A stretch of 64,000 nt of DNA from Balanoglossus misakiensis (taxonomy: Eukaryota; Animalia; Hemichordata), in NCBI GenBank assembly GCA_040954595.2, contig CM082591.2, forward strand, positions 7,182,047-7,246,046, written 5' to 3'. The notes under the pieces were generated by a model that saw only the letters and a program-made list of their open reading frames with translations, ran no database searches and was not told the DNA's origin. The position numbers and the translations under genes were made by a program. Numbering within the stretch: the stretch's first letter is position 1; each line of letters starts with the position of its first letter. This document shows positions 1-64,000 of the stretch, in pieces.

Positions 1-3000
1 CTTCCCTGGACTGAAGGAACTGACAAACATCCAACATGTAGTCGGATATTCTCCAAAGACACAGAATGCAGCCAAAGCAATCCACGAAAGTCTCTTCCCT
101 GAAGCCAAACTTCATCAACTCCATCTTCCAGATCCACCTCCTGGAGTATTATTTGTGTATGACGACTGGAACAAAGAAGATTGTGGCTTGACTGGGTTTC
201 ACAGAACTCTTGTACAAGATTTCTCTGCAAGAAAAGTCAAAGAAGAAACACCTGTTAACGCCTACTCCACATTTGTTGGTGTCAAAGTCAGTGATGACCA
301 GAAGGCAGATGCTGCCAAGTGTCGGGTTAAATTGATTCCAGCACAACAACTAGAAGGAATTGAACCAGATGAAGACAAGCCAGAATTAAAGTGGTTGATG
401 TATCATAAAATCTACTTTCCTGACTTACAAAAGTTAGAAAACATCCAGTATGTTGTTGGTTATGCTCCAAGAACTGGATTGGCTGCTGCCAATATCAGAA
501 AAAAATTGTTTCCTGATGCAGAATTAGTGATGATCAACCATGCCTATGAAGAACGCAACTGTCTGTTGAAACAACCAAAAGGGAAGTTTAGTGAAATGAT
601 GCTAAAGCTGGCCAGTGAAGCTGACATCATATTCTCAATTGGTCCAAGTATGTATGAGCATTTCAAGAATGAATACCGGGCTACCTTTGATGGCAGGGAA
701 CTACACATGATCCCTCATGCAGAGATTTTTCCCAGACCTGCTGAAGTCTTTTTCAGAAAAGACCCAACGTTCCTAGATGGAGTGACTACTCACAGCATAC
801 TGACATACGGGCAGATTGATACACAAGAAGCCTTGGACAGATGTGAGACAATAGCAGCTGCTATTGGAAGTGCAGCAAACATGGTGAAAGACTTTCACAA
901 CAAACTTCTGAATTGGTCAATACGGGGAGCAGGTGAGGCTGAACTGAAGCATATTCTACAGCAGATGAACAGCAATCATGTAATGGCATATCGTCACCCA
1001 GATTACTCAGAAAAGACCTTAATGATATCAGTGCATCAATCTCACAGTTGTCTTCCTGTCTCTGTCTACAAGGACTATCCATATAGCGGTTTAGAATCTA
1101 TAGCAGTTGGACTACCAACCTATCCTGATGAATATTCCCAGCTTGGAAAGTTAGTCAAGAAATACTTTCCATACTACGCAGAGAGATTTGTAGTGTCACA
1201 CTCATCTGATAAGATTTCGGAGAAGATAATATGGAGTGTCAAGAAGACCAGGTTAGCTTTTGAAGAAGCTAAGGAGCTGAAGAAGGCTTTCATGGAGAGT
1301 GAAGATGTCAAAAAGAGTTATGCAACATTTGCCAGTATGTTGACACCAAAGGGAAGAAAACAACAGGAAGATGAACATGACCAACGCACTAAAAAGGACA
1401 AACAAAATGCAACAGGTACAGTTTAAGTAATCTTATGTTTGGTTAAGGATTCATGGTTAAGTTTTCTTTATTCTTTAACTTCAAGGCTGGATGTCTGCAC
1501 TTTGAATTCAATCCTCATTCAGATAGTGTTGCAGCATGTTAATAAATAATGTGGCTCTATAAAGTTTCCCCATAACAATACCCCAACTGTACTATTTTGT
1601 TGTTGTTGAAAGACCAGATCTAAATGCACTGGTATATGAGGTATATACCGGTATGAGGTATGATATTTTGTGTTCTATTATCAGTTTAAACTTTTTTTTA
1701 GCCAGCTAATCATTCAAACAATGAGTTTGCTTCAAACATGTCATACAGCTTAGGGCGACGTTTTTATTTTCTGTGTTTCTCATCTCCCGACCGACCGTAA
1801 ATTTCAGCTCCGACATGAAAATAAAAAAAACTGTTTTATTTGCGCCGACTCTGAGCCTGAGGCGATCATCCTAGCAACAGCGCCCCCAACGGCTAATGGT
1901 GAGATTTTGCAAATATGACGTCATATTCATCATGGCGGTCGTTTCGGACCATGGCTGAAGCCATCGAGGCCGGAGGAAAGAAATTGTAGATAATGAAAGG
2001 ACAGAGCATTAAAGAGAAAGACAAGAAATTATAGTGACTAAAAGGACAGAGAGCACAAAACACTGGACTGAAAGATAAGAAATTGCAATGACTGAACAGC
2101 CAGAACATTGAACAGAAACAAATAGGCCTACACATTTGTTTGTAATGGATAAAACATGGAACTGAAACAGTTTTTTTTTTTTTTTGGTACACGTTTTTTT
2201 TTATTTCCCCCGCCCGCCCTGCCTGACTATTCCTCTGGAGATGAGAAACAAATAAAAAAAAGGGTCATTCTTATGTACTTCTACCATTCTGAAACAGCAA
2301 TTGCAGTTCCAGTCCAGCCAGATGGAGATGTTCGTCAACAAAATCCAACAACAGCAGAGCAGCAGACACCAAGTCAACCACCAGCAAAGAGAACAGCTGA
2401 AGAAGCATTGAATGACACAAACCGACAAACTACGAAAGTCCACATTAAGGAATTGGATGAAACGGATACAAGTATGACAGCAGAGCCGCTACAAAACACA
2501 GAAAACCATGATGACACAACAATTACAATCCATCTCGGACTGGATGAAAATGCCTATCAGCAGCATCTACGAGACGAAACACCGAACGAGGCAATGCAGC
2601 AGGCGGCTTCTGCATCTTGGGACAAATGCAAACAGGGGTTGGAGAGAAGAGCAGCTGAAGTGGTAACCAACGGTGATGACATCAACAAAGTCAAGAAGGC
2701 CTGCACTGATAAACTGGGTGAAGTGGACATAACCAATATGGAAACAGGGTCTCTGCAAATCACAGCCGACATGCGTAGACTTTATAATCTCTACAGATTG
2801 CGGGGAAGCTGTCTTGAAGATTCAAGAAGTTTAGCCAAGGCATTAGAACCAATCTTGATGACAGATGAAATGAGAAAGGAGGCCAACAGAACTGGAATTC
2901 CACTACAGTTGACAGCAACATATGACCAAGCTAGGTTTGATGAACTGGAACTATTCTTTCTGAACAGTAAGTTTTGTTTATCAGATATGGCTATAATAAA

Positions 3001-6000
3001 ACTCTCAGATTATTGATTAAACCAGAAAAAATTGGTTGCAATTGCCTTCCAAAAGAGATTAAAATCTTTCTGAAGCATGGTATTTAATTTATCAAGTTGA
3101 TTTGACAAAGATTTCATATCAACATTTCTACTCAATGTACATGTAACTTGTTTGACATATAGATGAAATAGGATAACTTAAATTTTCAATGACTTCTGTG
3201 TGTATACGTAATTGTTGTAACAGTAACAGATATGATTTCCTAGAAAAAATGTTTTATTTATTATCTTTCAGGAGATGGTGGAGGAATAGGACCAGTGGTA
3301 TGTAAGGACAGTGTAGACGATGAATATGTCAATGAGATACTGGCCGAGGTATGCTTTGTAATTTTAACCCTTAAAGTGCCACACCTGACCAATTGCAAGC
3401 CAAGCTGCTTTTGGATGATTATTGTCTTCCAGAGTCATGTTGACTACACAGGTCAATTTATTGTGAGTGCTAAAAAAATATGACAGTGATAGATGCATGA
3501 TGAATTTATGCACTTCATAATGTATCCGGTAAAAGGATAAAGCCTTTTATGCAGCATAACTTCCAATTTCAGGTTGACAGAACACACCTAACTTTGCAAC
3601 AGGAGGTTACAGAAAAATATGTTGATATTGAACAGACTGACCTGAAACAAAGTGAGTAATTTAATATAAATAATAGTCAAGTACTGGAAACATTTGGTAC
3701 GTACTCTAGTCCACATTTGTTCATCTTTTGACTTTCTGGTCCAGCTGTGATCAGATAAACTTGGGCATATATTTTGCTTAGAACACACTGACCACAATTT
3801 TCAAACGAACACTTATATACACAGTGGGGGATATGTGCACACACTGCACATAAGGCTTCATAAATATTCACAGATTAGAATGGATTTTTGTCTTCAACAT
3901 TTCAGTCTTTCAAATGCTCAGAGATTGGGCATGATATTTCAAATGCAATCGTAAATAATTACTGACATGAATGGTTTGTTAACAATTACACACATATTTG
4001 ACTTGTCAGTGTACACTTACACTATAATGTCCTGACTTTTTTTTTATCTGAGGGATGATGTAGGAAGGATTTTGTTGTGGCCATGATATCTGGTTATGGG
4101 TTATATTTTACATTCAACACCGTGAACCACTTATTCTTTCTTCATAACCAGCTTAATTGGATTCTTCATGTGCCAAGACTTAAAACCTGATTTTGTGCGT
4201 ATTTTGCAGGTGGGATATTATCCAAGTTGTTGTTCCTTGAGATTGATCCGACACGAGAAATCCAGAAGTCAGCTGACAAATATGCACCTCTGATACTCAA
4301 CAGTGAGCAGTGTAAAAGACAGAAAGGAAGACAGTGTGACATCATACAACTTACAGTGAAAATGACCGAGAAAGTTCAGCATATCCTATCTCACACACCT
4401 CAAGTCTTAGAGTTACTGGGTGTTAGAAGGTATCTTATGACTGACACAGAAAGGATGGATTTTACTGAAGCAGGTAATTCACAAATATGATGCAAACAGC
4501 ACATTTGCTTTACAATTTTAGGAAGTATGTTTGCTGCACTTTGTAACAAAAAGTAAATAGGAACATACACAGCTATGCACTGTGCAACATGAATGAAACT
4601 TTATAATAGTTTTGCAATATTATCATTCTCTATGTGTGATAATTATGGAACTTAATACATGTCCAAGGTTACTTGATATCAATAAAATTTATCTACATTC
4701 TACATTTCAGAGTTGGAAGATGAAATCACACTACATGGCAGACCAATTCATCCCATACCAGCAGAGTCTATCAGCTTACAAGCAAAAAGCTTACTGCCCT
4801 TTGAAGCTAGTGCAAAGCATCTCAAAGAACTGCAAAAACTGTTGGATGGGGCCCTGACAGAGAAGTCAAAAATTCAGACTGAGTCAGTTGAGAATAAGAG
4901 AAAGCTAGTTGGAGAAATCACTAAACTGCAGACTGAGTCAGTTGAGAATAAGAGAAAGGTAGTTGGAGAAATCACTAAACTGCAGACTGAGTCAGTTGAG
5001 AATAAGAGAAAGGTAGTTAAAGAAAACACTAAACTGCAGACAGAGAAGATGATTCTAGAGAATCAGTTGAAAGAAGCACTTCAGGAAAAGTCACTCTTAG
5101 AAGAGCAGTACAAACAGAAACTTGCAAGTGTTGAGAAAGTAGCCTCAACACAACTTATGGATGTCATTTCCCTGAAGCAAAGATTGAGAGATTCAGACCC
5201 TAGAAACATCCAAGAGCTGGAAACTAAACTTGACCAGCAAGAACAAACCATAACTGAGCTAAAGTCAAAATTATCCAAAATTCAGGATGAGCAATCTGAC
5301 ACTGAGCTGCAACTGAAAACTGCTAAAACTCTTCAACTGGAAGAAGATGCAAAATTGGAAACTGGACAAGGTGAGATTGATATAAATCTGCTTCGATTAT
5401 TCCTGCATCAAGAAAAATCTTCCAGCTCATATAGATTAGAAAAAAATGCAAGTTTCCATTGTTGTAAGAATTATAACCAAGTACTTAACATTTAATTATA
5501 TTTGTAGGTAAACTCACACCATCTGATGTGCCTCTCAAGAAAGATGACACAGGAGACATATCACCTGTAACCATGGCTACAAAAGATGAAGATGAGCCTG
5601 TGAAACCAGCAACAATGCAACCTGAGATGGCATCAGAAGAAACAGGAGCAGAGAAAGCCAGACATCCACAACCGGAGACAATGGGAAAAGAAGACACCGA
5701 GACTGTGGCCGAGATGACGGAAGAAGGAGTCGATGGAACTGAGACTACAGGTAGTCAAGAGATATCTGAGGATACAAAGGGAGCCAGTGTTTCAGCAGAA
5801 TCTTCTAAAACAGATTTATCAGGTATGTCCATTACATCTCAGTGTTGGAAAACAACAGTTAAGTACATATCAGTATGCTGATACTACTAAAGGGGCAAAT
5901 TGATTCAACACTTCAAGTAAAATTAATGTCTATGTCATCTCTCCACTACAGGAAGTCAAGAGATATCTGAGGATACAAAGGGAGCCAGTGTTTCAGCAGA

Positions 6001-9000
6001 ATCTTCAGAAACTGGTATGTGCATTCCATCTCAATGTTGGAAAATAACAGTTGAATACATGTGTTGATACCAAGGGATCAGTTGATTCAAAACTTCAAGT
6101 AAAATAAATGTCTAAGTCATCTCTCCACTACAGGAAGTAAAGAGATATCTGAGGATACAAAGGGAGCCAGTGTTTCAGCAGAACCTTCTAAAACAGGTAT
6201 GTGCATTCTCAGTGTTGGAAAATAAGTTGAATACGTGTGTTGATAATAAGGGATCAGTTGATTCAAAACTTCAAGTAAATGTTGAATCATTGGTTGCCAG
6301 ACTTCTACCGGTACTACCAAACTGCATTGTGTGTAAATGTATAATATAAGAAAACTTGATGACATAACATTTATGGCACTTACCAGAAACCTTGACATCA
6401 CAACGCAAATTTTTACAAGTATGAGGCAAGATGAGAATAGAGGTCTGGTCACCAACAATTCAGAGAGTTCAAAATCATTATAAGAAACTTTTCACTTGAT
6501 CAAACATAAACAAAGTAACGTCAGAAGATACCAACCTTGTCATCTTTGAATTCAACTTTGTATTCTTTGCAAGAATAGATTGGCTGTCTGGTCATTGATG
6601 AATACTTTTGTCTGTAAATTAGAAACATCAAAATGCGTGCAGATATTGACTCAATATCAATATCATGTGGATGAGATTGTTATGATCAATTCTGCAAGAG
6701 CATTTGATGGAGCATCAAGGTGTGCCAGAATAGAAAAAAGAAAAGCTATGAGCCAATTTGTGTGTAAATGTCCAATGTACAAGTAGGCTGATTATTGGCA
6801 AACAGCATAAAGCAATATAAAATAGAACAGTGGTTCAACCCTCTGTTTTGATTGGTATGGTTGAATCCATATGCAACAGAAAGGGGTGAAAGGTTCACTC
6901 TTTGTTACAGTGGCCAGAAATAAAACAACTCTGGTCCAGGGTGAAAATGCTCAATTTCTGCAATTTCAACCACTAGCTACAATCATTCAATTTCTTCATT
7001 TGACTTTTGAATTGTCATATGTAGATATTCAACAATATCAAGAAACTTTAATTTTGTTTTGATTATAAATAATCAAAAAAGGTAATTCAAATTAGGAACT
7101 TACCAATTTTTTATCCAAGTGACAATCTCGAACAGCCAGTGGTGTTGAGACAGACTATTTATCATGACTCATCCTAAGTAACTGCAGGTTTTCCATCTCT
7201 CAGATCATCTGCAATGATGTCACTATATAAGTGGTTAGGGTATATTCTTGCAAAAAAATATATCACTAAATTTCCAACAATACATTTTACTTTCCAATAA
7301 ATTCTTTAAAGTTAGAAAGGTTTACACCAATAATTTTCTCAAGGGTTTATTCACAAAAATACTCACCTGGTCAAAGAAAGTACCAGCCCTCTCGGCTAAG
7401 GAGTAGATAATTCTTCTCTGTTCACCAATATGACAATTACTGATTGAAAAGCAGACCATCTCTGGTTGGCTGGAAAAAGAAACAAAATCTTCGGCACAAC
7501 AACATTACAGATAGTATATAAAGTTAGAAATACTTTGTATTATAATAGTCTGTCAATGAAATGACAGATAGCTTTTTTCTTTATATTGCAAAGCAATAGA
7601 AATAGTTTCAGAAATTGATGTTTGTCTTGTTGCCCTGGTTTGAAAAGCTACAAGTATAAGGTAGGCAATGATCCTTGAGACATTGTTCAAGAATTTTTAT
7701 ATAAGACCCACTAATTCCAAAATTACAAGGCAAAGATTATTCCTGTACTGATCTGTTAAGATGTGTTACCATGACAACAATACTGTCACTAAATCCATTG
7801 AGCAGTTGAATAGGAACATTTTTTATGGGTTACAAAGACCATAAATAAAGTGATAATTTCAGGTAATATTTCTGCTACTTGTTTTCAAAAATAGAATTAT
7901 TAACTGATATTAACATTTTGTCCAGTTTCCATGGTTACTTGGTATTGGAAAATGTGTAGATATAGAGTACTTTGGCAGAAATATATCATGGCAATAACTC
8001 GCTAAATTTGTAAAAAAAAAGGTTTAAAGTTATATTAAAACACTAATTTTAGCACATTGCCAATGTTTTACAAAATACATTGAGGTTCAGTTGTCATGGT
8101 TACCAGTGAATAATGCTACCATCATACATTTTTTCCTAAAAATAATGGACCAAAGAATTATCCCTGAAACTCAGTTCAAGAATTGTTATGAAATGTCTAC
8201 TGAGTCAAAAGTTGCAAGTAAAAGATTATTTTTGAACTAATTTCTTTGAATGTGTTACCATGGCAACATCAACGATAGTATATCTATTGAATGGTTAAAT
8301 AAGATAGTCTTTTATGTATATTATAATATCAAAAATAGACAAAGTACATTTCCTCCTAGCTATATTGCAGAGAAAAAGAAATAGTTCAAGAAACTCATGG
8401 TTACTCTGGTTGCCATGGTTATTTGTCACTGTAAACATTGTGTAGAAAAACTACCCCTTAGTAGTTCAGTTGTCATAGCAATGATTCGTTTATTTTGTAA
8501 TATGTTTTCTCTTGTTAAAATGAACAATAAAACACTAACTCTAGCATATTCCTAATGCATTGCAATACAGCATGTGTGACCTTTGACCTTTGTTTCACCT
8601 AACAGGTCACTGGTCAGTGAGGACACTGGATGGCCAAAGTCCAAAGCCAGGGCGAAAGTTTAAATACCCGTGTGGTATGGTGTTCCATGGTGACAAACTG
8701 GTGGTGTGTGACCAAGGCAACAGGGTTGTACAGATACTGAATCAAGATTACACCTGTGACAAAGTCTTGGGAAGTTTTGATGGTCAGTTTGCAGAACCAT
8801 TCCATCCACAGGATGTAGCTGTCTCCCATGACAACATCTACTTCATAAGTGATGATGGAAATTCTCAAATTGTTGTTTGTGATCAAAACAATAAAATTCT
8901 TAGAATAATTACTCTACCTGCAGGCGTCGATGTCTGGGGCATCGCTCTACTGAATGGATTTGTTTTGGTCACTGAGGTCAAAGGTGATCGGCTACTCAAG

Positions 9001-9423
9001 TACACCCAAGATGGTCAGTATGTTGCAGAGGTTGGTGGTCGAGGTGATGGCCAAACACAATTCAATTTCCCACTCTCTGTGGTGGTCAACAGTAAGAATG
9101 TCATTATGGTGTCTGACTGTAACAATCACTGCATCAAGTGTTTTGATTCTGAATTGAAATTCTTGTATCAATTTGGTGTGAGAGGTTCAGGTCCTGGTCA
9201 GCTGTGGAGTCCAGACAGCATTGACATCGATGACGACGATAATTTGTTTGTGTGTGATTGGATGAATCATAGGATTGTGAAATGGAGATTTGATGGAGAG
9301 TGGATCTGTCACTTATTTGAAGGGGAGGTGAGACGCCCCTGGTTCCTTGCAGTCAGTGGTGACAGAATTACTGTTAGAGAGGATGGCAGAGACCAAATCA
9401 AAGTATTCTACAAGCAGACATAA
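1..9423 (+). CDS. Copy A (5'-partial) multi-exon gene: GT4-like glycosyltransferase domain, TRADD-N-like domain, coiled coil, acidic linker, NHL beta-propeller
   Basis: Frame-consistent GT-AG exons: <1-1415, 2298(or 2307)-2966, 3272-3348, 3573-3651, 4210-4473, 4711-5370, 5508-5822, 5952-6014, 6134-6196, 8606-9423. GT4-like C-terminal motif SGLESIAVGLP; NHL blades of type F-x-x-P-x-G/S...V-x-D-x-x-N-x-R/C-I. Paralogous to copies B and C. Confidence 0.85.
1750..2273. mobile_element. MITE with imperfect TIRs in copy A intron
   Basis: Ends ttagggcgacg...tttctcatctcc and ggagatgagaaac...gggtcattctta. An inverted near-copy is at ~39436-39894. Confidence 0.7.
4872..5043 (+). repeat. Three 54-nt coding tandem repeats (18 aa, LQTESVENKRKLVGEITK) in the coiled-coil exon
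   Basis: cagactgagtcagttgagaataagagaaag recurs every 54 nt; also at ~26186-26357 and ~52251-52422. Confidence 0.9.
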
Positions 9424-21277: not shown

Positions 21278-24200
21278 ATGTCAGAACCATCTGCAGCACT
21301 GGTTGTATTGAAATCATGGGACAAGGAGGCAAAGACCTCCCAACCAACTCAAGCTAAAATCAAACATCTCAAAGAAAACACACTCCAGTCTGAGAATGTT
21401 TCTGAATTCCTTTGTACTACCCTTGAAGTTGAAGTTAGTGAAGAACAAGAGAAAGATGCAGAGAGTGTTGGTGCTACTTTGATCCCAGCTACAAAAAGCG
21501 ATTGGTTAGATCTTCATGAAGACCCCCCAGGAGTAAACTGGCTTGTTAACCATGGTACATACTTCCCAGGACTGAAGAAACTGAAAAACATCCAACATGT
21601 AGTCAGATATTCTCCACAGACACACAAAGCAGCCGCAGCAATTCATGAAAGTCTCTTCCCTGAAGCGAAACTTCATCAACTCCAACTTCCCAATCCACCA
21701 CCTGTGGCAGCATTAATGGTCATGCAAACCTGGCAGACAGAATCAGAAGATCAGACAACAACACCAACTAACAAACTTGTCACTGAATTTCGAGAAGAAA
21801 AACTGAAGCCAGATGAAGTTTCTTTATTCAACTGTACTACCCTTGAAGTTGAAGTGAGTGAAGAACAAAAGAAAGATGCAGAGAGTGTTGATGCTACTTT
21901 GATCTCAGCTGTAAGAGACAAGAGATTGGATCCTCATGAAGACCCCCCTGCAATAAACTGGCTTGTTCACCATGATACATACTTCCCTAGACTGAAGGAA
22001 CTGACAAACATCCAACATGTAGTCGGATATTCTCCAAAGACACAGAATGCAGCCAAAGCAATCCACGAAAGTCTCTTCCCTGAAGCCAAACTTCATCAAC
22101 TCCATCTTCCAGATCCACCTCCTGGAGTATTATTTGTGTATGACGACTGGAACAAAGAAGATTGTGGCTTGACTGGGTTTCACAGAACCCTTGTACAAGA
22201 TTTCTGTGCAAGAAAAGTCAAAGAAGAAACACCTGTTAACGCCTACTCCACATTTGTTGGTGTCAAAGTCAGTGATGACCAGAAGGCAGATGCTGCCAAG
22301 TGTCGGGTTACATTGATTCCAGCACAACAACCAGAAGACAACAATGAACCAGAAGATGATCAGCCACATTTAAAGTGGTTGACGAAATATCATGAAACAT
22401 ACTACCCTCACCTCAGACAGCTACAAAACATCAAGTATGTTGTTGGTTATGCTCCAAGAACTGGATTTGCTGCTGCAAATATCAGAAAAAAATTGTTTCC
22501 TGATGCAGAATTAGTGATGATCAACCATGCCTATGAAGAACGCAACTGTCTGTTGAAACAACCAAAAGGGAAGTTTAGTGAAATGATGCTGAAGCTGGCA
22601 AGTGAAGCTGACATCATATTCTCAATTGGTCCAAGCATGTATGAGCATTTCAAGAACGAATACCGGGCTACCTTTGATGGCAGGGAACTACACATGATCC
22701 CTCATGAAGAGATTTTCCCCAGACCTGCTGAAGTCTTTTTCAGAAAAGACCCAACGTTCCTAGATGGAGTGACTACTCACAGCATACTGACATACGGGCA
22801 GATTGATACACAAGAAGCCTTGGACAGATGTGAGACAATAGCAGCTGCTATTGGAAGTGCAGCAAACATGGTGAAAGACTTTCACAACAAACTTCTGAAT
22901 TGGTCAATACGGGGAGCAGGTGAGGCTGAACTGAAGCATATTCTACAGCAGATGAACAGCAATCATGTAATGGCATATCCTCACCCAGATTACTCAGAAA
23001 AGACCTTAATGATATCAGTGCATCAATCTCACAGTTGTCTTCCTGTCTCTGTCTACAAGGACTATCCGTATAGCGGTTTAGAATCTATAGCAGTTGGACT
23101 ACCAACCTATCCTGATGAATATTCCCAGCTTGGAAAGTTAGTCCAGAAATACTTTCCATACTACGCAGACAGATTTGTAGTGTCACACTCATCTGATAAG
23201 ATTTCGGAGAAGATAATATGGAGTGTCAAGAACAGCAGGTCAGCTTTTGAAGAAGCTAAGGAGCTGAAGAAGGCTCTCATGGAGTGTGAAGATGTCAACA
23301 AGAGTTACGCCAAATTCAGCAGTTTGTTGACACCAGAGGAAATAAGGGAACAGGAAGACACAGTTGACCCATATGGCAAGGATATAAATCCTGCAGGTAT
23401 GGGACATTTTAAATATTTTGCCCTCAAGGTTTTTGTTTGGGATGCAATCATGAGGTTTTAATGGTTTTTGATCTGCAAGGCTAGTCAGTGTGCCTGCATT
23501 TCTTAAAGGAACAATTTTCAATCCATGGTTCTCCCATTAGTACGGTAGATTAATTCTCCCCCAACCCAATCGTGGCTTATACTTACTAACCGTGTTTGAA
23601 TTATCACAACATTAATTTACACACTGATCTGAACTGCTTGTCTCCTTAGCTAAAAAAAAACTATCACCATGTGATCGGTTTTGATTAGGCCATGCTCATA
23701 CCAAACAGGAATTCAGATTGATTTGGTGCATGTATGTAATTTATTGTCATTATTGTCTCTGACATAATTGTTATTCTACCTGTCATCATCCATAGATAAT
23801 CCTGCTGACACAAAAATTGCAATCCACATCCAACTGGATGAAAATGTCTACCAGGAGTATCCAGCAGAAAATGAGGGCCAGAATGAGGAAAGGCAACAGG
23901 CAGCATCTACAGCTTGGAACAACTGCAAACAACAGTTGAAGAGAAGAGCATATGATGTGGTATCCAACGGTGATGACACTGAGAAAGTCAAGAAAGTCTG
24001 CACTGAGAATTTGGGTGAAGTGGAAATAACCAATATGAGATCAGAGTCACTGCAAATCACAGCCAACATGCGTAGACTTTATAATCTCTACAGATTGCGG
24101 GGAAGCTGTCTTGAAGATTCAAGAAGTTTAGCCAAGGCATTAGAACCAATCTTGATGACAGATGAAATGACAGAGGCCAACACAGCTGGAATACCACTAC

Positions 24201-27200
24201 AGTTGATAGCTACATATGACCAAGCCAGGTTTGATGAACTGGAACTATTCTTTCTGAACAGTAAGTTTTGTTTATCAGAAACGGCAATAATAAAACTCTC
24301 AGATTATTGATTAAACCAGAAAAAATTGGTTGCAATTGCCTTCCAAAAGAGATAAAAATCTTTCTGAAACATGGTATTTAATTTATCAAGTTGATTTGAC
24401 AAAGATTTCATATCAACATTTCTACTCAATGTACATGTAACTTGTTTGACATATAGATGAAATAGGATAACTTAAATTTTGAATGACTTCTGTGTGTATA
24501 CGTAATTGTTGTAACAGTAACAGATATGATTTCCTAGAAAAAATGTTTTATTTATTATCTTTCAGGAGATGGTGGAGGAATAGGACCAGTGGTATGTAAC
24601 GACAGCGTAGACGATGAATATGTCAATGAGATACTGGCTGAGGTATGCTTTGTAATTTTAACCCTTAAAGTGCCACACCTGACCAATTGCAAGCCAAGCT
24701 GCTCTTGGATGATTATTGTCTTCCAGAGTCATGTTGACTACACAGGTCAATTTATTGTGAGTGCTAAAAAAATATGACAGTGATAGATGCATGATGAATT
24801 TATGCAGTTCATAATGTATCCGGTAAAAGGATAAAGCCTTTTATGCAGCATAACTTCCAATTTCAGGTTGACAGAACACACCTAACTTTGCAACGGGAGG
24901 TTACAGAAAAATATGTTGATATTGAACAGACTGGCCTGAAACAAAGTGAGTAATTTAATATAATTAATAGTCAAGTACTGGAAACATTTGGTACGTACTC
25001 TATTCCACATTTGTTCATCTTTTGACTTTCTGGTCCAGCTGTGATCAGATAACTTGGGCATATATTTTGCTTAGAACACACTGACCACAATTTTCAAACA
25101 AACACTTATATACACAGTGGGGGATATGTGCACACACTGCACATAAGGCTTCATAAATATTCACAGATTAGAATGGATTTTTGTCTTCAACATTTCAGTC
25201 TTTCAAATGCTCAGAGATTGGGCATGATATTTCAAATGCAATCGTAAATAATTACTGACATGAATGGTTTGTTAACAGTTATTCAAATTTTTCTCTTGAC
25301 AATTACACACATATTTGACTTGTCAGTGTACACTTACACTATAATGTCCTGACTTTTTTTTAATCTGAGGGATGATGTAGGAAGGATTTTGTTGTGGCCA
25401 TGATATCTGGTTATGGGTTATATTTTACATTCAACACCGTGAACCACTTATTCTTTCTTCATAACCAGCTTAATTTGATGCTTCATGTGCCAAGACTTAA
25501 AACCTGATTTTGTGTGTATTTTGCAGGTGGGATATTATCCAAGTTGTTGTTCCTTGAGATTGATCCGACACGAGAAATCCAGAAGTCAGCTGACAAATAT
25601 GCACCTCTGATGCTCAACAGTGCGCAGTGTAAAAGACAGAAAGGAAGACAGTGTGACATCATACAACTTACAGTGAAAATGACCGAGAATGTTCAGCATA
25701 TCCTATCTCACAGACCTCAAGTCTTAGAGTTACTAGGTGTTAGAAGGTACCTAATGACTGACACAGAAAGGATGGATTTTAGTGAATCAGGTAATTCACA
25801 AATATGATGCAAACAGCACATTTCCTTTACAAAGGGAAGTATGTTTGCTGCACTTTGTAACAAAAAGTAAATAGGAACATACACAGCTATGCACTGTGCA
25901 ACATGAATGAAACTTTATAATAGTTTTGCAATATTATCATTCTCTATGTGTGATAATTATGGAACTTAATACATGTCCAAGGTTACTTGATATCAATAAA
26001 ATTTATCTACATTCTCCATTTCAGAGTTGGAAGAAGAAATCATACAACATGGCAGACCAATTCATCCTATACCAGCAGAGTCTATCAGCTTACAAGCAAA
26101 AAGCTTACTGCCCTTTGAAGCTAGTGCAAAGCAGCTCAAAGAACTAAAACAACTGTTCGATGGGGCCCTGACAGAGAAGTTCAAAATTCAGACTAAGTCA
26201 GTTGAGAATAAGAGAAAGCTAGTTGGAGAAATCACTAAACTGCAGACTGAGTCAGTTGAGAATAAGAGAAAGCTAGTTGGAGAAATCACTAAACTGCAGA
26301 CTGAGTCAGTTGAGAATAAGAGAAAGCTAGTTGGAGAAATCACTACACTGCAGACAGAGAAAATGATTCTAGAGAATCAGTTGAAAGAAGCACTTCAGGA
26401 AAAGTCACTCTTAGAAGAGCAGTACAAACAGAAACTTGCAAGTGTTGAGAAAGTAGCCTACACACAACTTATGGATGTCATTTCCCTGAAGCAAAGATTG
26501 AAAGAATCAGACCCTAGAAACATCCAAGAGTTCGAATGTAAACTTGAGCAACAAGAACAAACCATAACTGAGCTAAAGTCAAAATTATCCAAAATCCAGG
26601 ATGAGCAATCTGACACTGAGCTGCAACTGAAAACTGCTAAAACTCTTCAACTGGGAGAAGATGCAAAATTGGAAACTGAACAAGGTGAGATTGATATAAA
26701 TCTGCTTCGATTATTCCTGCATCAAAATCTTCCAGCTCATATAGATTATAAAAAAATGCCAGTTTTCATTGTTGTAAGAATTATAACCAAGTACTTAACA
26801 TTTAATTTCAAATATTTGTAGGCAAACTCACACCATCTGATGTGCCTCTCAAGAAAGATGACACAGGAGACATATCACCTGTAACCATGGCTACAAAAGA
26901 TGAAGATGAGCCTGTGAAACCAGCATCAATGCAACCTGAGATGGCATCAGAAGAAACAGGAGCAGAGAAAGCCAGACATCCACAACCAGAGACAATGGGA
27001 AAAGAAGACACTGAGGCTGTGGCCAAGATGACGGAAGAAGGAGTCGATGGAACTGAGACTACGGGTAGTCAAGAGATATCTGAGGATACAAAGGGAGCCA
27101 GTGTTTCAGCAGAATCTTCTAAAACAGATTTATCAGGTATGTCCATTACATCTCAGTGTTGGAAAACAACAGTTAAGTACATATCAGTATGCTGATACTA

Positions 27201-30200
27201 CTAAAGGGGTAAAATTGATTCAACACTTTAAGTAAAATTAATGTCTATGTCATCTCTACATTACAGGAAGTAAAGAGATATCTGAGGATACAAAGGGAGC
27301 CAGTGTTTCAGCAGAACCTTCTAAAACAGGTATGTGCATTTCATCTCAATGTTAGAAAACAACAGTTGAATACATGTGTTGATACTTAGGGATCAGTTGA
27401 TTCAAAACTTCAAGTAAATGTTAAATCATTGGTTGCCATACTTCAACCGGTACTACCAAACTGCATTGTGTGTAAATGTATAATATAAGAAAACTTGATG
27501 ACATAACATTTATGGCACTTACCAGAAACCTTGACATCACAACACAAATTTTTACAAGTATGAGGCAAGATGAGAATAGAGGTCTGGTCACCAACAATTC
27601 AGAGAGTTCAAAATCATTATAAGAAACTTTTCACTTGATCAAACATAAACAAAGTAACGTCAGAAGATACCAACCTTGTCATCTTTGAATTCAACTTTGT
27701 ATTCTTTGCAAGATAAGATTGGCTGTCTGGTCATTGATGAATACTTTTGTCTGTAAATTAGAAACATCAAAATGCGTGCAGATATTGACTCAATATCAAT
27801 ATCATGTGGATGAGATTGTTATGATCAATTCTGCAAGAGCATTTGATGGAGCATCAAGGTGTGCCGGAATAGAAAAAAGAAAAGCTATGAGCCAATTTGT
27901 GTGTAAATGTCCAATGTACAAGTAGGCTGATTATTGGCAGACAGCATAAAGCAATATAAAATAGAACAGTGTTTCAAACCCTCTGTTTTGATTGGTATGG
28001 TTGAATCCATATGCAACAGAAAGGGGTGAAAGGTTCACTCTTTGTTACAGTGGCCAGAAATAAAACAACTCTGGTCCAGGGTGAAAATGCTCAATTTCTA
28101 CAATTTCAACCACTAGCTACAATCATTCAATTTCTTCATTTGACTTTGGAATTGTCATATGTAGATATTCCACAATATCAAGAAACTTTAATTTTGTTAT
28201 GATTATAAATAATCAAAAAAGGTAATTCAAATTAGGAACTTACCAATTTTTTATCCAAGTGACAATCTGGAACAGCCAGTGGTGTTGAGACAGACTATTT
28301 ATCATGACTCATCCTAAGTAACTGCAGGTTTTCCATCTCTCAGATCATCTGCAATGATGTCACTATATAAGTGGTTACTGGGTATATTCTTGCAAAAAAA
28401 TATATCACTAAATTTCCAACAATGCATTTGACTTTCCAATAAATTCTTTAAAGTTAGAAAGGTTTACACCAATAATTTTCTCAAGGGTTTATTCACAGAA
28501 ATACTCACCTGGTCAAAGAAAGTACCAGCCCTCTAGGCTAAGGAGTAGATAATTCTTCTCTGTTCACCAATATAACAATTACTGATTGAAAAGCAGACCA
28601 TCTCTGGTTGGCTGGAAAAAGAAACAAAATCTTTGGCACAACAACATTACAGATAGTATATAAAGTTAGAAATACTTTGTATTATAATAGTCTGTCAATA
28701 AAATGACAGATAGCTTTTTTCTTTATATTGCAAAGCAATAGAAATAGTTTCAGAAATTGATGTTTGTCTTGTTGCCCTGGTTTGAAAAGCTACAAGTATA
28801 AGGTAGGCAATGATCCTTGAGACATTGTTTAAGAATATTTATGTAGGACCTACTAATTCCAAAATTACAAGGCAAAGATTATTCCTGTACTGATCTGTTA
28901 AGATGTGTTACCATGACAACAATACTGTCACCAAATCCATTGAGCAGTTGAATAGGAACATTTTTTATGGGTTACAAAGACCATAAATAAAGTGATAATT
29001 TCAGGTAATATTTCTGCTACTTGTTTTCAAAAATAGAATTATTAACTGATATTAACATTTTGTCCAGTTTCCATGGTTACTTGGTATTGGAAAATGTGTA
29101 GATATAGAGTACTTTGGCAGAAATATATCATGGCAATATCTCGCTAAATTTGTAAAAAAAAAAGGTTTAAAGTTATATTAAAACACTAACTTTAGCACAT
29201 TGCCAATGTTTTACAAAATACATTGAGGTTCAGTTTAATATTGCTACTTTTTGCTGACGATCTTGTCTTGATGAGCTGCACAATGATAGGTTTACAGAGA
29301 TTGTTAAATAAGCTTTCGGAGTATTGTAAAATATGGCAACTGAAAGTGAACCATGGTAAATCCAAAATTGTAGTTTTTAGACGAGGAGGAGTCCTTAAAA
29401 AATGTTATAAATGGTATTTGAATGGAGAAAAACTTGATATTGTACCTTATTATAAATACCTTGGTTTATTAATGTCTAGTAGTGCCATTCAAGCCAGTAA
29501 AGCTGTGTTCGCCTTAAAGCGCCACTTTGCAAACTTAGGGGACATCCCCCTTAATTATGCACTTAAAAATTATGATTGTAAGATTCTTCCGATCCTTAAT
29601 TATGCATCGGAAGTATGGGGATTCCATAATGCACATGATGTGGAAAAAGTAGAAAATAATTTCCTGCGGTTTATTTTATGTTTGAAAAGAAATACTCCAG
29701 TGAGTGCCATTAAGGCCGAGATTGGTCGTCCTGGTCTTTTGTATTATCGTCATATCAGAATACTGAAATACTGGCTAAAATTGCTCAAAACTAGACCAGG
29801 TAGTATCTTGTCAACTTGTTATAAAGTACAATATGATAGAGCAGAAAAAAATATGCATTGTTGGGCACTACAGGTAAAATAACTGTTATGTAATATGGGT
29901 TTTTCAGAAGTGTGGATGCAACAGGGAGTCTCAAATGAACATATTTTTTTTAAATTTTTCAGAGAGAGATGTAAGGATGTACAAATGCAAATTATCATGT
30001 GCGATGTTAAATCCATCCCTAAATTATTCACTTATAGTCGTTTCAAATTTAGCCCACACATGGAGGAATATTTGTGTATTATTCAACACAGGGGCTTTAG
30101 AGCAGCACTGACCCGTTTTCGTTTATCAAGTCATACCTTGCGTATAGAACAGTGCAGATGGGAAAGGATAAAACCCCCAAGATCAGAAAGAACATGTCTC

Positions 30201-32134
30201 ATATGTAATAATGGGCAAATTGAAGATGAGTATCACATGTGTTTTATCTGCCCAGCTTATACAGATTTGCGGGAAAAATTCATCCCAAGCTTTTTCCTAA
30301 ATCCTCCTGTAGAATATAAGTTTCACAAACTCATGTCAACAAATAACAAATATTTATTACACCAATTGAGTAAATACATTCTCCTTGCTTTCCAAAAGAG
30401 AGATAAATTGTTACAAGGGTAGACACGAGTAAATGCTTTGATGGCATGACATATTATTGTATTTCTACTTTGTATTTAAAGGGACAATCGGCCATATATA
30501 TACTGAATAAACATATTCAATTCAATTCAATTCAATTCAAACACCATAAATAAAGTGATAATTTCAGGTAATATTTCTGCTACTTGTTTTCAAAAATTGA
30601 ATTATTAACTGATATTAACATTTTGTCCAGTTTCCATGGTGACTTGGTATTGGAAAATGTGTACATATAGAGTACTTTGGTAGAAATATATCGTGGCAAT
30701 AACTCGCTAAATTTGTAAAAAAAAAAAAAAGGTTAAAGTTAAATTAAAACACTAACTTTAGCACATTACCAATGTTTTACAAAATACATTGAGGTTCAGT
30801 TGTCATGGTTACCAGTCAATAATGCTACCATCATACATTTTTTCCTAAAAATAATGGACCAAAGAATTATCCCTGAAACTCAGTTCAAGAATTGTTATGA
30901 AATGTCTACTGAGTCAAAAGTTACAAGTAAAAGATTATTTTTGAACTGATTTATTTGAATGTGTTACCATGGCAACATCAACGATAGTATATCTATTGAA
31001 TGGTTAAATAAGATAGTCTTTTATGTATATTATAATATCAAAAAGAGACAAAGTAAATTTCCTCCTAGCTATATTGCAGAGAAAAAGAAATAGTTCAAGA
31101 AACTCATGGTTACTCTGGTTGCCATGGTTATTTGTCACTGTAAACATTGTGTAGAAAAACTACCCCTTAGTAGTTTAGTTGTCATAGCAATGATTCGTTT
31201 CTTTTGTAATATGCTTTCTCTTGTTAAAATGAACAATAAAACACTTACTCTAGCATATTCCAAATGCATTTCAGTAGGGTACAGCATGTTTGACCTTTGA
31301 CCTCTGTTTCACCTAACAGGTCACTGGTCAGTGAGGACACTGGATGGCCAAAGTCCAAACACAGGGCGAAAGTTTAAAAACCCATGGGGTATGGTGTTCC
31401 ATGGTGACAAACTAGTGGTGTGTGACCGAGGCAACAGGGTTGTACAGATACTGAATCAAGATTACACCTGTGACAAAGTCTTGGGAAGTTTTGATGGTCA
31501 GTTTGCAAAGCCATTCCAGCCACGGGATGTAGCTGTCTCCCATGACAACATCTACTTCATAAGTGATGGTGGAAATTCTCAAATTGTTGTTTGTGATCAA
31601 AACAATAAAATTCTTAGAATAATTACTCTACCTGCAGGCGTCAATGTCTGGGGCATCGCTCTACTGAATGGATTTGTTTTGGTCACTGAGTTCGAAGGTC
31701 ATCGGCTACTCAAGTACACCCAAGATGGTCATTATGTTGCAGAGGTTGGTGGTCGAGGTCGTGGCCAAACACAATTCCATAACCCATACTCTGTGGTGGT
31801 CAACAGTAAGAATGTCATCATGGTGTCTGACTGGGGCAATGACTGCATCAAGTGTTTTGATGCTGAATTGAAATTCTTGTATCAATTTGGTGTGAGAGGT
31901 GAAGGTCCTGGTCAGCTGGGGTATCCACACAGCATTGACGTCGATGACGACGATAATTTGTTTGTGTGTGATGGGAATGCTAGGATTGTGAAATGGAGAT
32001 TTGATGGAGAGTGGATCTGTCACTTATTTGAAGGGGAGGTGACATGGCCTGAGTTCCTTGCAGTCAGCGGTGACAGAATTGCTGTTAGAGAGTCTGGCAG
32101 CGACCAAATCAAAGTATTCTGCAAGCAGACATAA
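21278..32134 (+). CDS. Copy B complete gene (~1618 aa): 2 N-terminal repeats, GT4-like domain, TRADD-N-like domain, coiled coil, linker, NHL propeller
   Basis: Exons 21278-23396, 23796-24260, 24566-24642, 24867-24945, 25527-25790, 26025-26684, 26822-27136, 27267-27329, 31320-32134 join into an open 4857-nt CDS with canonical splice sites. Acceptor at 21267; probable non-coding first exon with donor at 20319/20320. Confidence 0.88.
29236..30540 (+). mobile_element. 5'-truncated non-LTR retrotransposon (RT C-terminal half, RTE/RTEX-like) in the last intron of copy B
   Basis: LLFADDLVL reverse-transcriptase motif; one in-frame TAA at 29880-29882; C-terminal C-x2-C...EDEYH...C motif; aataaa followed by a (TTCAA)n tail at 30516-30540. 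Absent from copies A and C. Confidence 0.85.
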
Positions 32135-46283: not shown

Positions 46284-49200
46284 ATGTCAGAACCATCTGC
46301 AGCACTGGTTGTATTGAAATCATGGGACAAGGAGGCAAAGACCTCCCAACCAACTCAAGCTATAATCAAACATCTCAAAGAAAACACACTCCAGTCTGAG
46401 AATGTTTCTAAATTCCTCTGTACTACCCTTGAAGTTGAAGTTAGTGAAGAACAAGAGAAAGATGCAGAGAGTGTTGACGCTACTTTGATCCCAGCTGTAA
46501 GAGACAAGAGATTGGATCCTCATGAAGACCCCCCTGGAGTACACTGGTTTGCCAGCCACAGTATCCACTTCCCAGAGCTGAAAGAACTGAAAAACATCCA
46601 ACATGTAGTCGGATATTCTCCACAGACACACAATGCAGCCAAAGCAATTCATGAAAGTCTCTTCCCTGAAGCCAAACTTCATCAACTCCAACTTCCCAAT
46701 CCACCACCTGTGGCAGCATTAATGGTCATGCAAACCTGGCAGACAGAATCAGAAGATCAGACAACAACACCAACTCATCAGCTTGTCACTAAATTTCGAG
46801 AAGAAACCCTGAAGTCGGAGAAAGTTTCTCAATCCTACTTTACTACACTTGATGTTGAAGTGAGTGAAGAACAAAAGAAAGATGCAGAGAAATTTAATGT
46901 TACTTTGATCCCAGCTACAAAAAGCGAGTGGTTGGATCCTCATGAAGACCCCCCTGGAGTACACTGGCTTGTTAACCATAGCATTTACTTCCCAGGACTG
47001 AAGGAACTGAAAAACATCCAACATGTAGTCGGATATTCTCCACAGACACACAATGCAGCCAAAGCAATTCAAGAGAGTCTCTTCCCTGAAGCCAAACTTC
47101 ATCAACTTCAACTTCCCAATCCACCACCTGTGGCAGCATTAATGGTCATGCAAACCTGGCAGACAGAATCAGAAGATCAGACAACAACATCAACTAACAA
47201 ACTCGTCACTGAATTTCGAGAAGAAAAACTGAAGCCAGATGAAGTTTCTGAATTCCACTGTACTACCCTTGAAGTTGAAGTGAGTGAAGAACAAAAGAAA
47301 GATGCAGAGAGTGTTGATGCTACTTTGATCCCAGCTGTAAGAGACAAGAGATTGGATCCTCATGAAGACCCCCCTGGAGTACACTGGCTTGTTCACTATG
47401 ATACATACTTCCCTAGACTGAAGGAACTGACAAACATCCAACATGTAGTCGGATATTCTCCAAAGACACAGAATGCAGCCAAAGCAATCCACGAAAGTCT
47501 CTTCTCTAAAGCCAAACTTCATCAACTCCATCTTCCAGATCCACCTCCTGGAGTATTATTTGTGTATGACGACTGGAACAAAGAAGATTGTGGCTTGACT
47601 GGGTTTCACAGAACTCTCGTACAAGATTTCTGTGCAAGAAAAGTCAAAGAAGAAACACCTGTTAACGCCTACTCCACCTTTGTTGGTGTCAAAGTCAGTG
47701 ATGACCAGAAGGCAGATGCTGCCAAGTGTCGGGTTAAATTGATTCCAGCACAACAACAAGAAGAAGACAGAACTGCAGAGCCAGAAGAAGATCAGCCACA
47801 TTTAAAATGGTTGACGAAATATCATGAAACCTACTACCCTCACCTCAGACAGCTACAAAACATCCAGTATGTTGTTGGTTATGCTCCAAGAACTGGATTT
47901 GCTGCTGCAAATATCAGAAAAAAATTGTTTCCTGATGCTAAACTTGTAATGATCAACCATGCCTATGAAGAAGGCAACTGTCTGTTGAAACTACCTCCAG
48001 GAAAGTTTAGTGAAATGATGCTGAAGCTGGCCAGTGAAGCTGACCTCATATTTTCAATTGGTCCAAGTATGTATGAGCATTTCAAGAATGAATACCGAGC
48101 TACCTTTGATGGCAGGGAACTACACATGATCCCTCATGAAGAGATTTTTCCCAGACCTGCTGAAGTCTTTTTCAGAAAAGACCCAACGTTCCTAGATGGA
48201 GTGGCTACTCACAGCATACTGACATATGGACAGATTGATACACAAGAAGCCTTGGACAGATGTGAGACAATAGCAGCTGCTATTGGAAGTGCAGCAAACA
48301 TGGTGAAAGACTTTCACAACAAACTTCTGAATTGGTCAATACGGGGAGCAGGTGAGGCTGAACTGAAGCATATTCTACAGCAGATGAACAGCAATCATGT
48401 AAAAATGGCATATCCTCACCCAGATTACTCAGAAAAGACCTTAATGATATCAGTGCATCAATCTCACAGTTGTCTTCCCGTCTCTGTCTACAAGGACTAT
48501 CCATATAGCGGTTTAGAATCTATAGCAGTTGGACTACCAACCTATCCTGATGAATATTCCCAGCTTGGAAAGTTAGTCAAGAAATACTTTCCATACCACG
48601 CAGACAGATTTGTAGTGTCACACTTATCTGATAAGATTTCAGAGAAGATAATATGGAGTGTCAAGAACACCAGGTCAGCTTTTGAAGAAGCTAAGGAGCT
48701 GAAGAAGGCTCTCATGGAGTGTGAAGATGTCAACAAGTGTTACGCCAAATTCAGCAGTTTGTTGACACCAGACGAAATAAGGGAACAGGAAGACAGAGTT
48801 GACCCATGTGGCAAGGATATAAATCCTGCAGGTATGGGACATTTTAAATATTTTGCCCTCAAGGTTTTTGTTTGGGATGCAATCATGTGGTTTTAATGGT
48901 TTTTGATCTGCAAGGCTAGTCAGTGTGCCTGCATTTCTTAAAGGAGCAATTTTCAATCCATGGTTCTCCCATTAGTACGGTAGATTAATTCTCCCCCAAC
49001 CCAATTGTGGCTTATACTTACTAATCGTGTTTGAATTATCACAACATTAATTTAGACACTGATCTGAACTGCTTGTCTCCTTAGCTAAAAAAAACCTATC
49101 ACCAAGTGATCGGTTTTGATTAGGCCATGCTCATACCAAACAGGAATTCAGATTGATTTGGTGCATGTATGTAATTTATTGTCATTATTGTCTCTGACAT

Positions 49201-55200: not shown

Positions 55201-56030
55201 TTCACCTAACAGGTCACTGGTCAGTGAGGACACTGGATGGCCAAAGTCCAAAGCCAGGGCAAAAGTTTAAAGACCCAGGCAGTATGGTGTTCCATGGTGA
55301 CAAACTGGTGGTGTGTGACCGAGGCAACAGGGTTGTACAGATACTGAATCAAGATTACACCTGTGACAAAGTCTTGGGAAGTTTTGATGGTCAGTTTGCA
55401 AAGCCATTCCAGCCACGGGATGTAGCTGTCTCCCATGACAACATCTACTACATAAATGATAATGGAAATTCTCAAATTGTTGTTTGTGATCAAAACAATA
55501 AAATTCTGAGAATAATTACTCTACCTGCAGGCGTCTATGTCTGTGGCATCGCTCTACTGAATGGATTTGTTTTGGTCACTGAGGCCGCAGGTCATCGGCT
55601 ACTCAAGTACACCCAAGATGGTCAGTATGTTGCAGAGGTTGGTGGTCGAGGTGATGGCAAAACACAATTCGATCACCCATACTCTGTGGTGGTCAACAGT
55701 AAGAATGTCATCATGGTGTCTGACTGTTTCAATGACTGCATCAAGTGTTTTGATTCTGAATTGAAATTCTTGTATCAATTTGGTGTGTATGGTTCAGGTC
55801 CTGGTCAGCTGAGGTGGCCACGCAGCATTGACGTCGATGACGACGATAATTTGTTTGTGTGTGATGCAGCGAATGCTAGGATTGTGAAATGGAGATTTGA
55901 TGGAGAGTGGATCTGTCACTTATTTGAAGGGGAGGTGAGCCTCCCTTACTTCCTTGCAGTCAGCGGTGACAGAATTGCTGTTAGAGAGTTGACCAGCGAC
56001 CAAATCAAAGTATTCTACAAGCAGACATAA
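46284..56030 (+). CDS. Copy C complete gene (~1657 aa): 3 N-terminal repeats, GT4-like domain, TRADD-N-like domain, coiled coil, short linker, NHL propeller
   Basis: Exons 46284-48831, 49231-49695, 50001-50077, 50302-50380, 50959-51222, 52090-52749, 52932-52994, 55213-56030 join into an open 4974-nt CDS. The 315-nt linker exon is deleted without changing the frame. Confidence 0.88.
51395..52015. mobile_element. Copy-C-specific intronic insertion with a terminal ~143-bp palindrome
   Basis: Absent from A and B; flanked by tgataatta on both sides; palindrome ggggttattacact...agtgtaataacccc (51395-51537); ttatcatacatgc inverted against the terminal gcatgtatgataa. Confidence 0.8.
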
Positions 56031-63957: not shown

Positions 63958-64000
63958 GTCACTGGTCAGTGAGGACACTGGATGGCCAAAGTCCAAAGCC
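63958..64000 (+). CDS. Start of a fourth NHL-propeller exon (GHWSVRTLDGQSPK...), truncated by the window end
   Basis: Same start as the NHL exons at 8606, 31320 and 55213, with acceptor ...ttcacctaatag. The preceding 62948-63957 is a copy of the 3' part of the last intron only. Confidence 0.65.

Follow-up and report, generated by a model that had tools for sequence, protein, structure and literature searches.

Introduction

Selection focused on the binding face of a repeat domain that recognises non-self is known for the fungal HET-D and HET-E WD40 propellers, as well as for nematode and plant F-box adaptors. HET genes diversify by the shuffling of repeats that are almost identical to each other and belong to the same gene. 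We describe here a 64,000-nucleotide stretch of contig CM082591.2 of the acorn worm Balanoglossus misakiensis (assembly GCA_040954595.2, positions 7,182,047 to 7,246,046 of the forward strand; below, the window) with three tandem genes, A, B and C, in which, unlike in the HET proteins, whole genes are duplicated and the propeller, of the NHL type, has six divergent, fixed blades. The data are best explained by very strong positive selection on ordinary point mutations that have changed the top face of this propeller.

The proteins with GT4 and TRADD-N domains (DEDD2 clade), described by Kaur et al. 2021 in cnidarians, cephalochordates and hemichordates (PMC8195603), resemble A, B and C in the GT4-conflict domain, in the variable C-terminal module and in the lineage-specific expansion; the TRADD-N domain behind their GT4 has a likely, though less certain, counterpart in A, B and C. 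In its passages on this clade, the paper treats such proteins as counter-invader factors and refers to expanded immunity-related families in hemichordates. Its supplement lists a GT4+TRADD-N+beta-propeller combination for amphioxus and, for Saccoglossus, several proteins with GT4+TRADD-N; this holds among the matches listed (17 of 176 for GT4 and 17 of 201 for propeller), and an acorn-worm row may lie outside them. Since the combination is tabulated for amphioxus, the architecture of A, B and C is known in kind. The main text of PMC8195603 nowhere uses the word "NHL"; the four matches to it in the supplement are in one file, and the two of them that are shown are alignment letters. In the passages concerned, the variable propellers are called WD40 and their diversity is credited to recombination, whereas the propeller described here is NHL and is under selection. 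The same passages do not mention site-level selection, tandem repeats of the GT4 N-lobe or the loss of the first Glu of the GT4 motif.

The TRIM-NHL proteins (TRIM2, TRIM3, TRIM71/LIN-41, Brat, Mei-P26, Thin) have the same fold in the same terminal position, after a coiled coil that is likely present in A, B and C as well, and the variable positions of A, B and C make up their ligand-binding face. However, TRIM-NHL proteins carry a RING/B-box module, and none was found in the scanned exons of A, B and C. Their NHL domains are also few per genome and conserved across species (88% between human and zebrafish for TRIM71, as given in the relevant part of PMC9634614), whereas the face in A, B and C turns over at a silent divergence of 2-5%. 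Multigene families with a terminal binding domain whose hypervariable loops are under positive selection are represented by the fish finTRIM, btr and trim35 arrays and by TRIM5; the passages of PMC3137616 on these families give about 5-10% of sites as selected and describe exchange of C-terminal exons. There the terminal domain is a B30.2 sandwich (PRY-SPRY) on a ubiquitin-ligase chassis, while A, B and C end in NHL; these arrays are the nearest evolutionary parallel, but the analogy is one of function only.

Literature searches on hypervariability, selection and expansion of invertebrate NHL domains, with most subscription journals outside their coverage, found no paper on selection acting on the NHL top face. 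The main text of a paper on the antiviral response of an acorn worm (PMC10210618) has none of the words NHL, tripartite and glycosyltransferase. The case described below is not a new mechanism of diversification; it is one of strong selection on a known binding face.

Results

Selection on the NHL exons

The last exon of each gene codes for a six-bladed NHL propeller: 8606..9423 (+) in copy A (271 amino acids and a stop), 31320..32134 (+) in copy B (270 amino acids, one codon shorter in blade 5) and 55213..56030 (+) in copy C (271 amino acids). All three match Pfam family PF01436 above cut-off, with E-values of 8e-16, 2.4e-18 and 2.2e-10, respectively. A first-pass annotation of the window had pointed out twelve triplets of residues that vary between the copies around conserved positions of the blades, along with one nucleotide example; all of these were located in the three exons, on the plus strand and within a single open frame each, ending in TAA.

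Amino acids differ between A, B and C at 45 of the 271 positions, 18 of which show three states; six more codons differ silently only. The differing columns are split 23/19/8 over codon positions 1, 2 and 3, and many of the replacements change several bases of a codon, as had been claimed. Also in agreement with that annotation, the neighbouring introns are nearly identical. In 12 pairwise comparisons of flanking introns and downstream DNA the divergence was 1.4-3.4%, and the silent divergence within the NHL exon was 2.3-4.7%. Such low values indicate that the copies are young or recently homogenised.

Over the whole NHL exon, with no selection of sites, the ratio of nonsynonymous to synonymous divergence (dN/dS, by the Nei-Gojobori method, NG86) was 2.08, 1.84 and 3.31 for the three pairs; in the GT4 and middle regions it was 0.28-0.64. 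Chance would not produce such an excess in the NHL exon. Codon site models were run with our own code on three sequences and a star tree, with naive empirical Bayes posteriors. For the NHL exon, model M2a was preferred over M1a with a likelihood-ratio test (LRT) statistic of 88.3 when single changes were allowed and 45.3 when double and triple changes were allowed as well. The omega value was 38-43 at about 12-13% of codons, and the posterior exceeded 0.95 for 24 codons in the single-hit and 22 codons in the multi-hit version. Thus, a site-wise test of the kind called for in the first-pass annotation placed omega far above 1 at the selected codons. For the middle region the same comparison gave an LRT statistic of 0.0. 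For GT4 a statistic of 16.1 fell to 6.7 in the multi-hit version and came from about two codons with implausible omega, therefore positive selection on GT4 was not accepted.

That annotation had offered diversifying selection or targeted diversification, possibly somatic, as explanations of the pattern. To tell selection from targeted mutagenesis we gave the fast class of codons a free overall rate. The silent rate of this class was 1.06 times the background, and a neutral fast class (omega = 1, raised rate) was rejected against selection with an LRT statistic of 23.6 (p 1e-6), or 22.4 in the multi-hit version. Silent sites adjoining the selected codons were variable in 2 of 20 cases versus 4 of 120 (p 0.20, range 0.20-1.0). 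Since the silent rate at selected codons is not raised, neutral targeted mutagenesis is rejected. Of the two explanations, selection held; the targeted or somatic one was not supported, because A, B and C occupy separate loci within a single assembled sequence and selection gives the better fit.

Location of the variable residues on the propeller

The AlphaFold model of the copy A NHL domain, built from a 44-sequence alignment, has six blades and 24 strands with a predicted local distance difference test score (pLDDT) of 95.3. Foldseek aligned it to the NHL domains of Thin, TRIM2, TRIM3 and LIN-41 with template modelling (TM) scores of 0.79-0.86 (0.83-0.86 for Thin, TRIM2 and TRIM3) and with an E-value of 2e-21 to Thin. 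The NHL top face is formed by the b-c and d-a loops, according to the structural passages of PMC4015489. Faces were assigned by topology from DSSP strands, with the top face taken to include these two kinds of loop and, at the start of every a strand, two residues. An initial set of 36 top-face positions, picked post hoc and partly circular, was superseded by this set and by the LIN-41-based one described below.

Variable residues occupied 37 of 95 top-face positions compared to 2 of 46 in the bottom loops and 6 of 127 at other strand positions (p 5e-6), and all 24 selected codons were on the top face. The sites are therefore on one face of the model rather than scattered over it. The earlier statement that the same positions vary in every blade was right about the positional pattern and overstated the evenness: blades 4-6 hold 18 of the 24 selected codons, while blade 2 has one. 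Three additional selected sites (147, 192 and 194), beyond the earlier list, are located earlier in the d-a loops. Tryptophan, tyrosine, arginine and histidine, said earlier to be abundant on this surface, account for 34% of the residues found at selected sites versus 7% in the bottom loops.

For zebrafish LIN-41, 14 RNA-contact residues are named in the relevant section of PMC5908797. Numbered by hand on our alignment, all 14 fall at P-2, P-1, P+1, D+1 or D+2 of the repeat. There are 30 positions of this type, and they include every one of the 18 three-state sites (p 8e-12 even inside the top face). The net charge at these 30 positions is 0 in A, +1 in B and +3 in C, and the residues are not conserved.

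Relatives in Ptychodera flava and other acorn worms

Searches with the NHL domain returned matches largely from Ptychodera flava (47 of 54 and 29 of 31), at 42-69% identity; other matches included one Glandiceps protein at 37% and protein P0055 at 74%. A search with GT4 returned P. flava proteins in 36 of 36 cases. Ahead of this NHL subfamily, P. flava has several kinds of chassis: GT4 in 17 of the 54 matches, RING and/or B-box in 12 of them, and a DED in protein P0072. On the other side, the C-terminal modules of the P. flava GT4 matches include NHL and TPR, and one of these proteins has a DED in front. Another NHL relative, P0060, falls into generic NHL clusters in Atlas. The GT4 family is thus a lineage-specific expansion with variable C-terminal modules. 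In the tree of framework positions A, B, C and P0055 made a group of their own (bootstrap 100); since they are apart from the rest, the expansion was separate in each lineage.

Among 85 proteins taken for the P. flava analysis, 10 that were from other species or outside the subfamily and 23 with less than 90% domain coverage were dropped, leaving 52 domains, 48 of them distinct. We observed that at the 24 sites selected in the window the 48 domains had an entropy of 2.82 bits compared to 1.07 elsewhere (p 4e-14). The entropy was 2.49 at the LIN-41-type positions versus 1.40 at the remaining top-face positions (p 3e-7). In pairs with a framework identity of at least 90% (47 of 1128 pairs, mutually non-independent) the identity was 48% at the 24 sites and 94% in the bottom loops. 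Judged by the pattern of variation, which for P. flava is that of proteins alone, the signal is confined to the known ligand-binding face in both species. Of the 48 domains, 40 have a net positive charge over the 30 contact-type positions, with a range from -3 to +5.

The GT4 protein P0011 nests among NHL domains borne by TRIM proteins, which suggests repeated swapping of NHL between TRIM and GT4 chassis. Besides, a 1772-base contig of a sequencing run (run X3, record 18) whose sample is possibly the source of the window joins the start of a related NHL exon to a different upstream sequence, which suggests that the species of the window also carries the NHL propeller on another chassis.

Gene models and domains

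The gene models are based on open frames, on splice signals and, for one junction, on the end of a single contig. Gene A (2..9423, +) has its 5' end beyond the window; its predicted exons, 2-1415, 2298-2966 (the start being set by the acceptor AG), 3272-3348, 3573-3651, 4210-4473, 4711-5370, 5508-5822, 5952-6014, 6134-6196 and 8606-9423, splice to one open frame. Gene B (21278..32134, +) has 9 predicted exons coding for 1618 amino acids, with GT-AG at 8 of 8 introns and one terminal stop, while gene C (46284..56030, +) has 8 predicted exons coding for 1657 amino acids, with GT-AG at 7 of 7 introns and, again, one terminal stop. The order of domains predicted in B is two extra GT4 N-lobe repeats, GT4, a TRADD-N-like domain, a coiled coil, a low-complexity linker and NHL; gene C has three extra N-lobe repeats and is without the 315-base linker exon. 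In a single contig of run X3, a run whose kind was guessed as DNA, the start of the NHL exon is preceded directly by a loose end that matches the last bases of the exon before it, a weak hint that the predicted last splice is made.

The 63-base linker exons are tandemly duplicated (5744-6279 and 27058-27418), with two in A and one each in B and C; a further copy of this unit sits at the end of the 315-base exon.

Exon 1 of B (21278..23396, +) contains the GT4-conflict domain at amino acids 285-669. The PF20706 matches have E-values of 2.3e-34 in B and 1.1e-39 in C (119 and 137 bits versus a cut-off of 26). Tandem copies of the N-lobe, 138-143 codons each, are located at 21278-22124 (two, in B) and 46284-47550 (three, in C). 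Each unit carries a variable loop in its middle, with no overall amino-acid excess: pN was below pS in 27 of 28 pairs. A, B and C all have Lys where the first Glu of E-x7-E belongs, a motif which we take to be the donor-binding motif of active GT4 glycosyltransferases. Among relatives, Glu was present at this position in 1 of 35 motif matches (isoforms not collapsed). Because of this replacement, the GT4 domain of A, B and C is likely to be inactive or altered, as judged by the motif; the Asp one place after the Lys might stand in for Glu. A sequence search of the Protein Data Bank with GT4 gave no useful match.

Exon 2 of B (23796..24260, +) was modelled by AlphaFold as an alpha/beta ferredoxin-like domain (pLDDT 88). 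The top row in VIA was the TRADD N-terminal domain 1f2h (Z 6.0, root-mean-square deviation 4.2, 109 aligned residues), tied with a transposase and a cadherin domain. Foldseek placed TRADD-N at rank 4 (E 0.14, TM 0.44), and the Pfam TRADD-N family had no match in this exon. From the model, exon 2 is likely to be TRADD-N-like. Exon 6 (26025..26684, +) has tandem repeats of 18 residues, a heptad-like sequence and weak matches to coiled-coil Pfam families below cut-off; it likely forms a coiled coil. No RING or B-box match was seen in the scanned frames of exons 1, 2, 5 and 6, with the 5' end of gene A outside the window, and no Cys/His-rich motif was visible in the small exons of the spliced proteins.

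The tandem array and its surroundings

Self-comparison showed a 22-25 kb unit present three times in the window and a partial fourth copy, D (62948..64000, +). Long blocks of the A, B and C units are 91-98% identical in self-BLAST. Copy D consists of 1.0 kb of the last intron, an intact acceptor AG and then the first 43 bases of the NHL exon (63958-64000), where the window ends. It is 98.5% identical to 54201-55255 and, over 629 bases, has 6 differences from C, 12 from A and 16 from B. No upstream exons of D were present in the interval between C and D, with D starting 7.9 kb past the stop of gene C. This orphan copy may be used as an alternative last exon or as a donor in conversion, or it may be a dead fragment.

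Local runs of differences specific to one copy are visible between the copies. Patches 251-488 and 1236-1371 have 20 and 18 A-only differences, far above the number elsewhere, and may be tracts that came from a paralog more distant than B and C. In three sequencing runs of one sample, possibly the source of the window, there were 426, 403 and 48 contigs over 1.4 kb; these numbers fit many copies and alleles, though contig depth gives no copy number.

A GLTP/CPTP-like coding exon (41883-42419, -; PF08718, E 1e-37) lies in the interval from gene B to gene C and is read from the other strand. The last intron of gene B holds a reverse-transcriptase remnant (29196-30422, +; PF00078, E 3e-7), likely of a non-LTR (long terminal repeat) element, with its frame broken by a stop. 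A direct duplication of 260 bases (28975-29235 and 30538-30801) lies on both sides of the remnant, which has no counterpart in A or C. An exon-like piece of another gene, with splice signals, on the opposite strand of the last intron (~7365-7475, -; copies near 28510-28615 and 54155-54250) is open in A and has a stop in B and a deletion in C.

Discussion

We consider it rather probable, judging from sequence and structural models, that the three genes make up a germline repertoire of pathogen sensors inside the cell, probably with a protein ligand, each copy being predicted to bind a different molecule. When omega is near 40 between paralogs, a constantly changing antagonist is indicated, and pathogens are the commonest agent of this kind; hence we infer that the NHL surface recognises something foreign. 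The proteins would be cytosolic, as no signal or membrane stretch was seen by eye, and the coiled coil would oligomerise them as in TRIM proteins. The propeller would bind the ligand, in each copy a different, fast-changing molecule of a pathogen, and the TRADD-N-like domain would relay the signal, with GT4 likely serving as a pseudo-enzyme or a binding module. New specificities would appear when the 22-25 kb unit is duplicated and selection then acts on about 24-30 of its codons. Since charges and aromatic residues change freely from one copy to the next, the ligand is more likely a protein than RNA.

Several points weigh against this interpretation. The selection signal itself names no selective agent, and the selected positions are the RNA-binding ones of LIN-41, with which, by analogy, an RNA-targeting role would fit equally. 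The omega value is imprecise because the codon models had only three sequences. The structural scores behind the TRADD-N-like assignment of exon 2 are tied with those of unrelated proteins. For the swapping of NHL between chassis, the approximately unbiased (AU) test, with a fast search over 26 rows of known N-terminal module, did not reject a single TRIM clade (p 0.33). A runs test for conversion mosaics over 132 non-coding sites found 83 runs versus 86.7 expected (p 0.28).

With less probability, the propellers could bind RNA with different specificities, as in Brat and LIN-41, and track viral or transposon RNAs, which would make the array an RNA-targeting defence repertoire. The hypervariable positions match the RNA-contact classes of LIN-41 exactly, the solved structures closest in fold are those of TRIM-NHL domains, the selected sites are often occupied by Arg, Tyr or Trp, and most P. 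flava domains are net positive at contact-type positions. On the other hand, the passages of PMC4015489 on RNA binding describe the tops of RNA-binding NHL domains as strongly basic, whereas the net charges run from 0 to +3 in the window and from -3 to +5 in P. flava, and the RNA-contact arginines are not conserved. We see it as improbable that the family guards or recognises fast-evolving host proteins, as in self/non-self, gamete or selfish-element conflicts, in the manner of the fungal HET WD40 propellers. An equal signature of selection on one propeller face would be expected there, and death-type chassis (DED, TRADD-N-like) do occur among the relatives. The GLTP-like gene between B and C, which may be there by chance, would fit as well, GLTP presumably being the family of a HET ligand. 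Still, this gene is tied to the array by position alone, and in P. flava it is dozens of paralogs, located on several chromosome-sized contigs, that carry the diversity, and not the alleles of a single locus.

A targeted mutational process that rewrites codons, whether somatic hypermutation, templated change of the kind made by diversity-generating retroelements (DGR), or neutral micro-conversion from old donors, is very unlikely. The many multi-base replacements, two of the six silent differences (which fall in conserved prolines flanked by variable codons), the orphan exon D as a possible donor and the reverse-transcriptase remnant in gene B could all be read in its favour. However, the silent rate of the hot class is flat and its neutral version is rejected, the silent sites next to the selected codons show no significant excess of variation, and the variable columns are concentrated at codon positions 1 and 2; self-BLAST of the window found no template repeat besides D, and the reverse-transcriptase frame is broken and present in neither A nor C. 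Conversion that merely reshuffles selected variants among the copies is possible. It is hardly credible that the copies are alleles or assembly artefacts, or that the loops simply tolerate change through relaxed constraint, even though the long blocks are highly identical and loops generally vary more than strands. The three genes differ in exon number, repeat number and insertions, and the pattern recurs in the independently assembled P. flava; relaxed constraint cannot yield omega above 1, and the bottom loops are nearly invariant.

Beyond the array of sensors that we favour for this locus, a wider possibility is that the single-exon NHL domain is a general variable binding domain of marine invertebrates, used in a germline repertoire with dozens of specificities per genome that senses intracellular pathogens; we advance this tentatively, as somewhat less than an even chance. 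Equally tentative is the picture, by analogy, of a domain plugged into ubiquitin-ligase, death-domain and pseudo-glycosyltransferase chassis as a counterpart of B30.2 or of the antibody V domain. There is a small chance that orphan exons such as D serve as alternative last exons or conversion donors and multiply the specificities per gene.

We know of no rearranging receptors in invertebrate deuterostomes, and this NHL family bears on how these animals cover diverse intracellular pathogens. If true, the interpretation would mean that the RNA-binding face of developmental TRIM-NHL regulators has been reused as a conflict surface. Since the copies are 97% identical in framework and differ at about 24 known surface codons, ligand specificity could be mapped by swaps of a few residues, and the domain is a small propeller scaffold made by nature, in which the variable positions are already defined.

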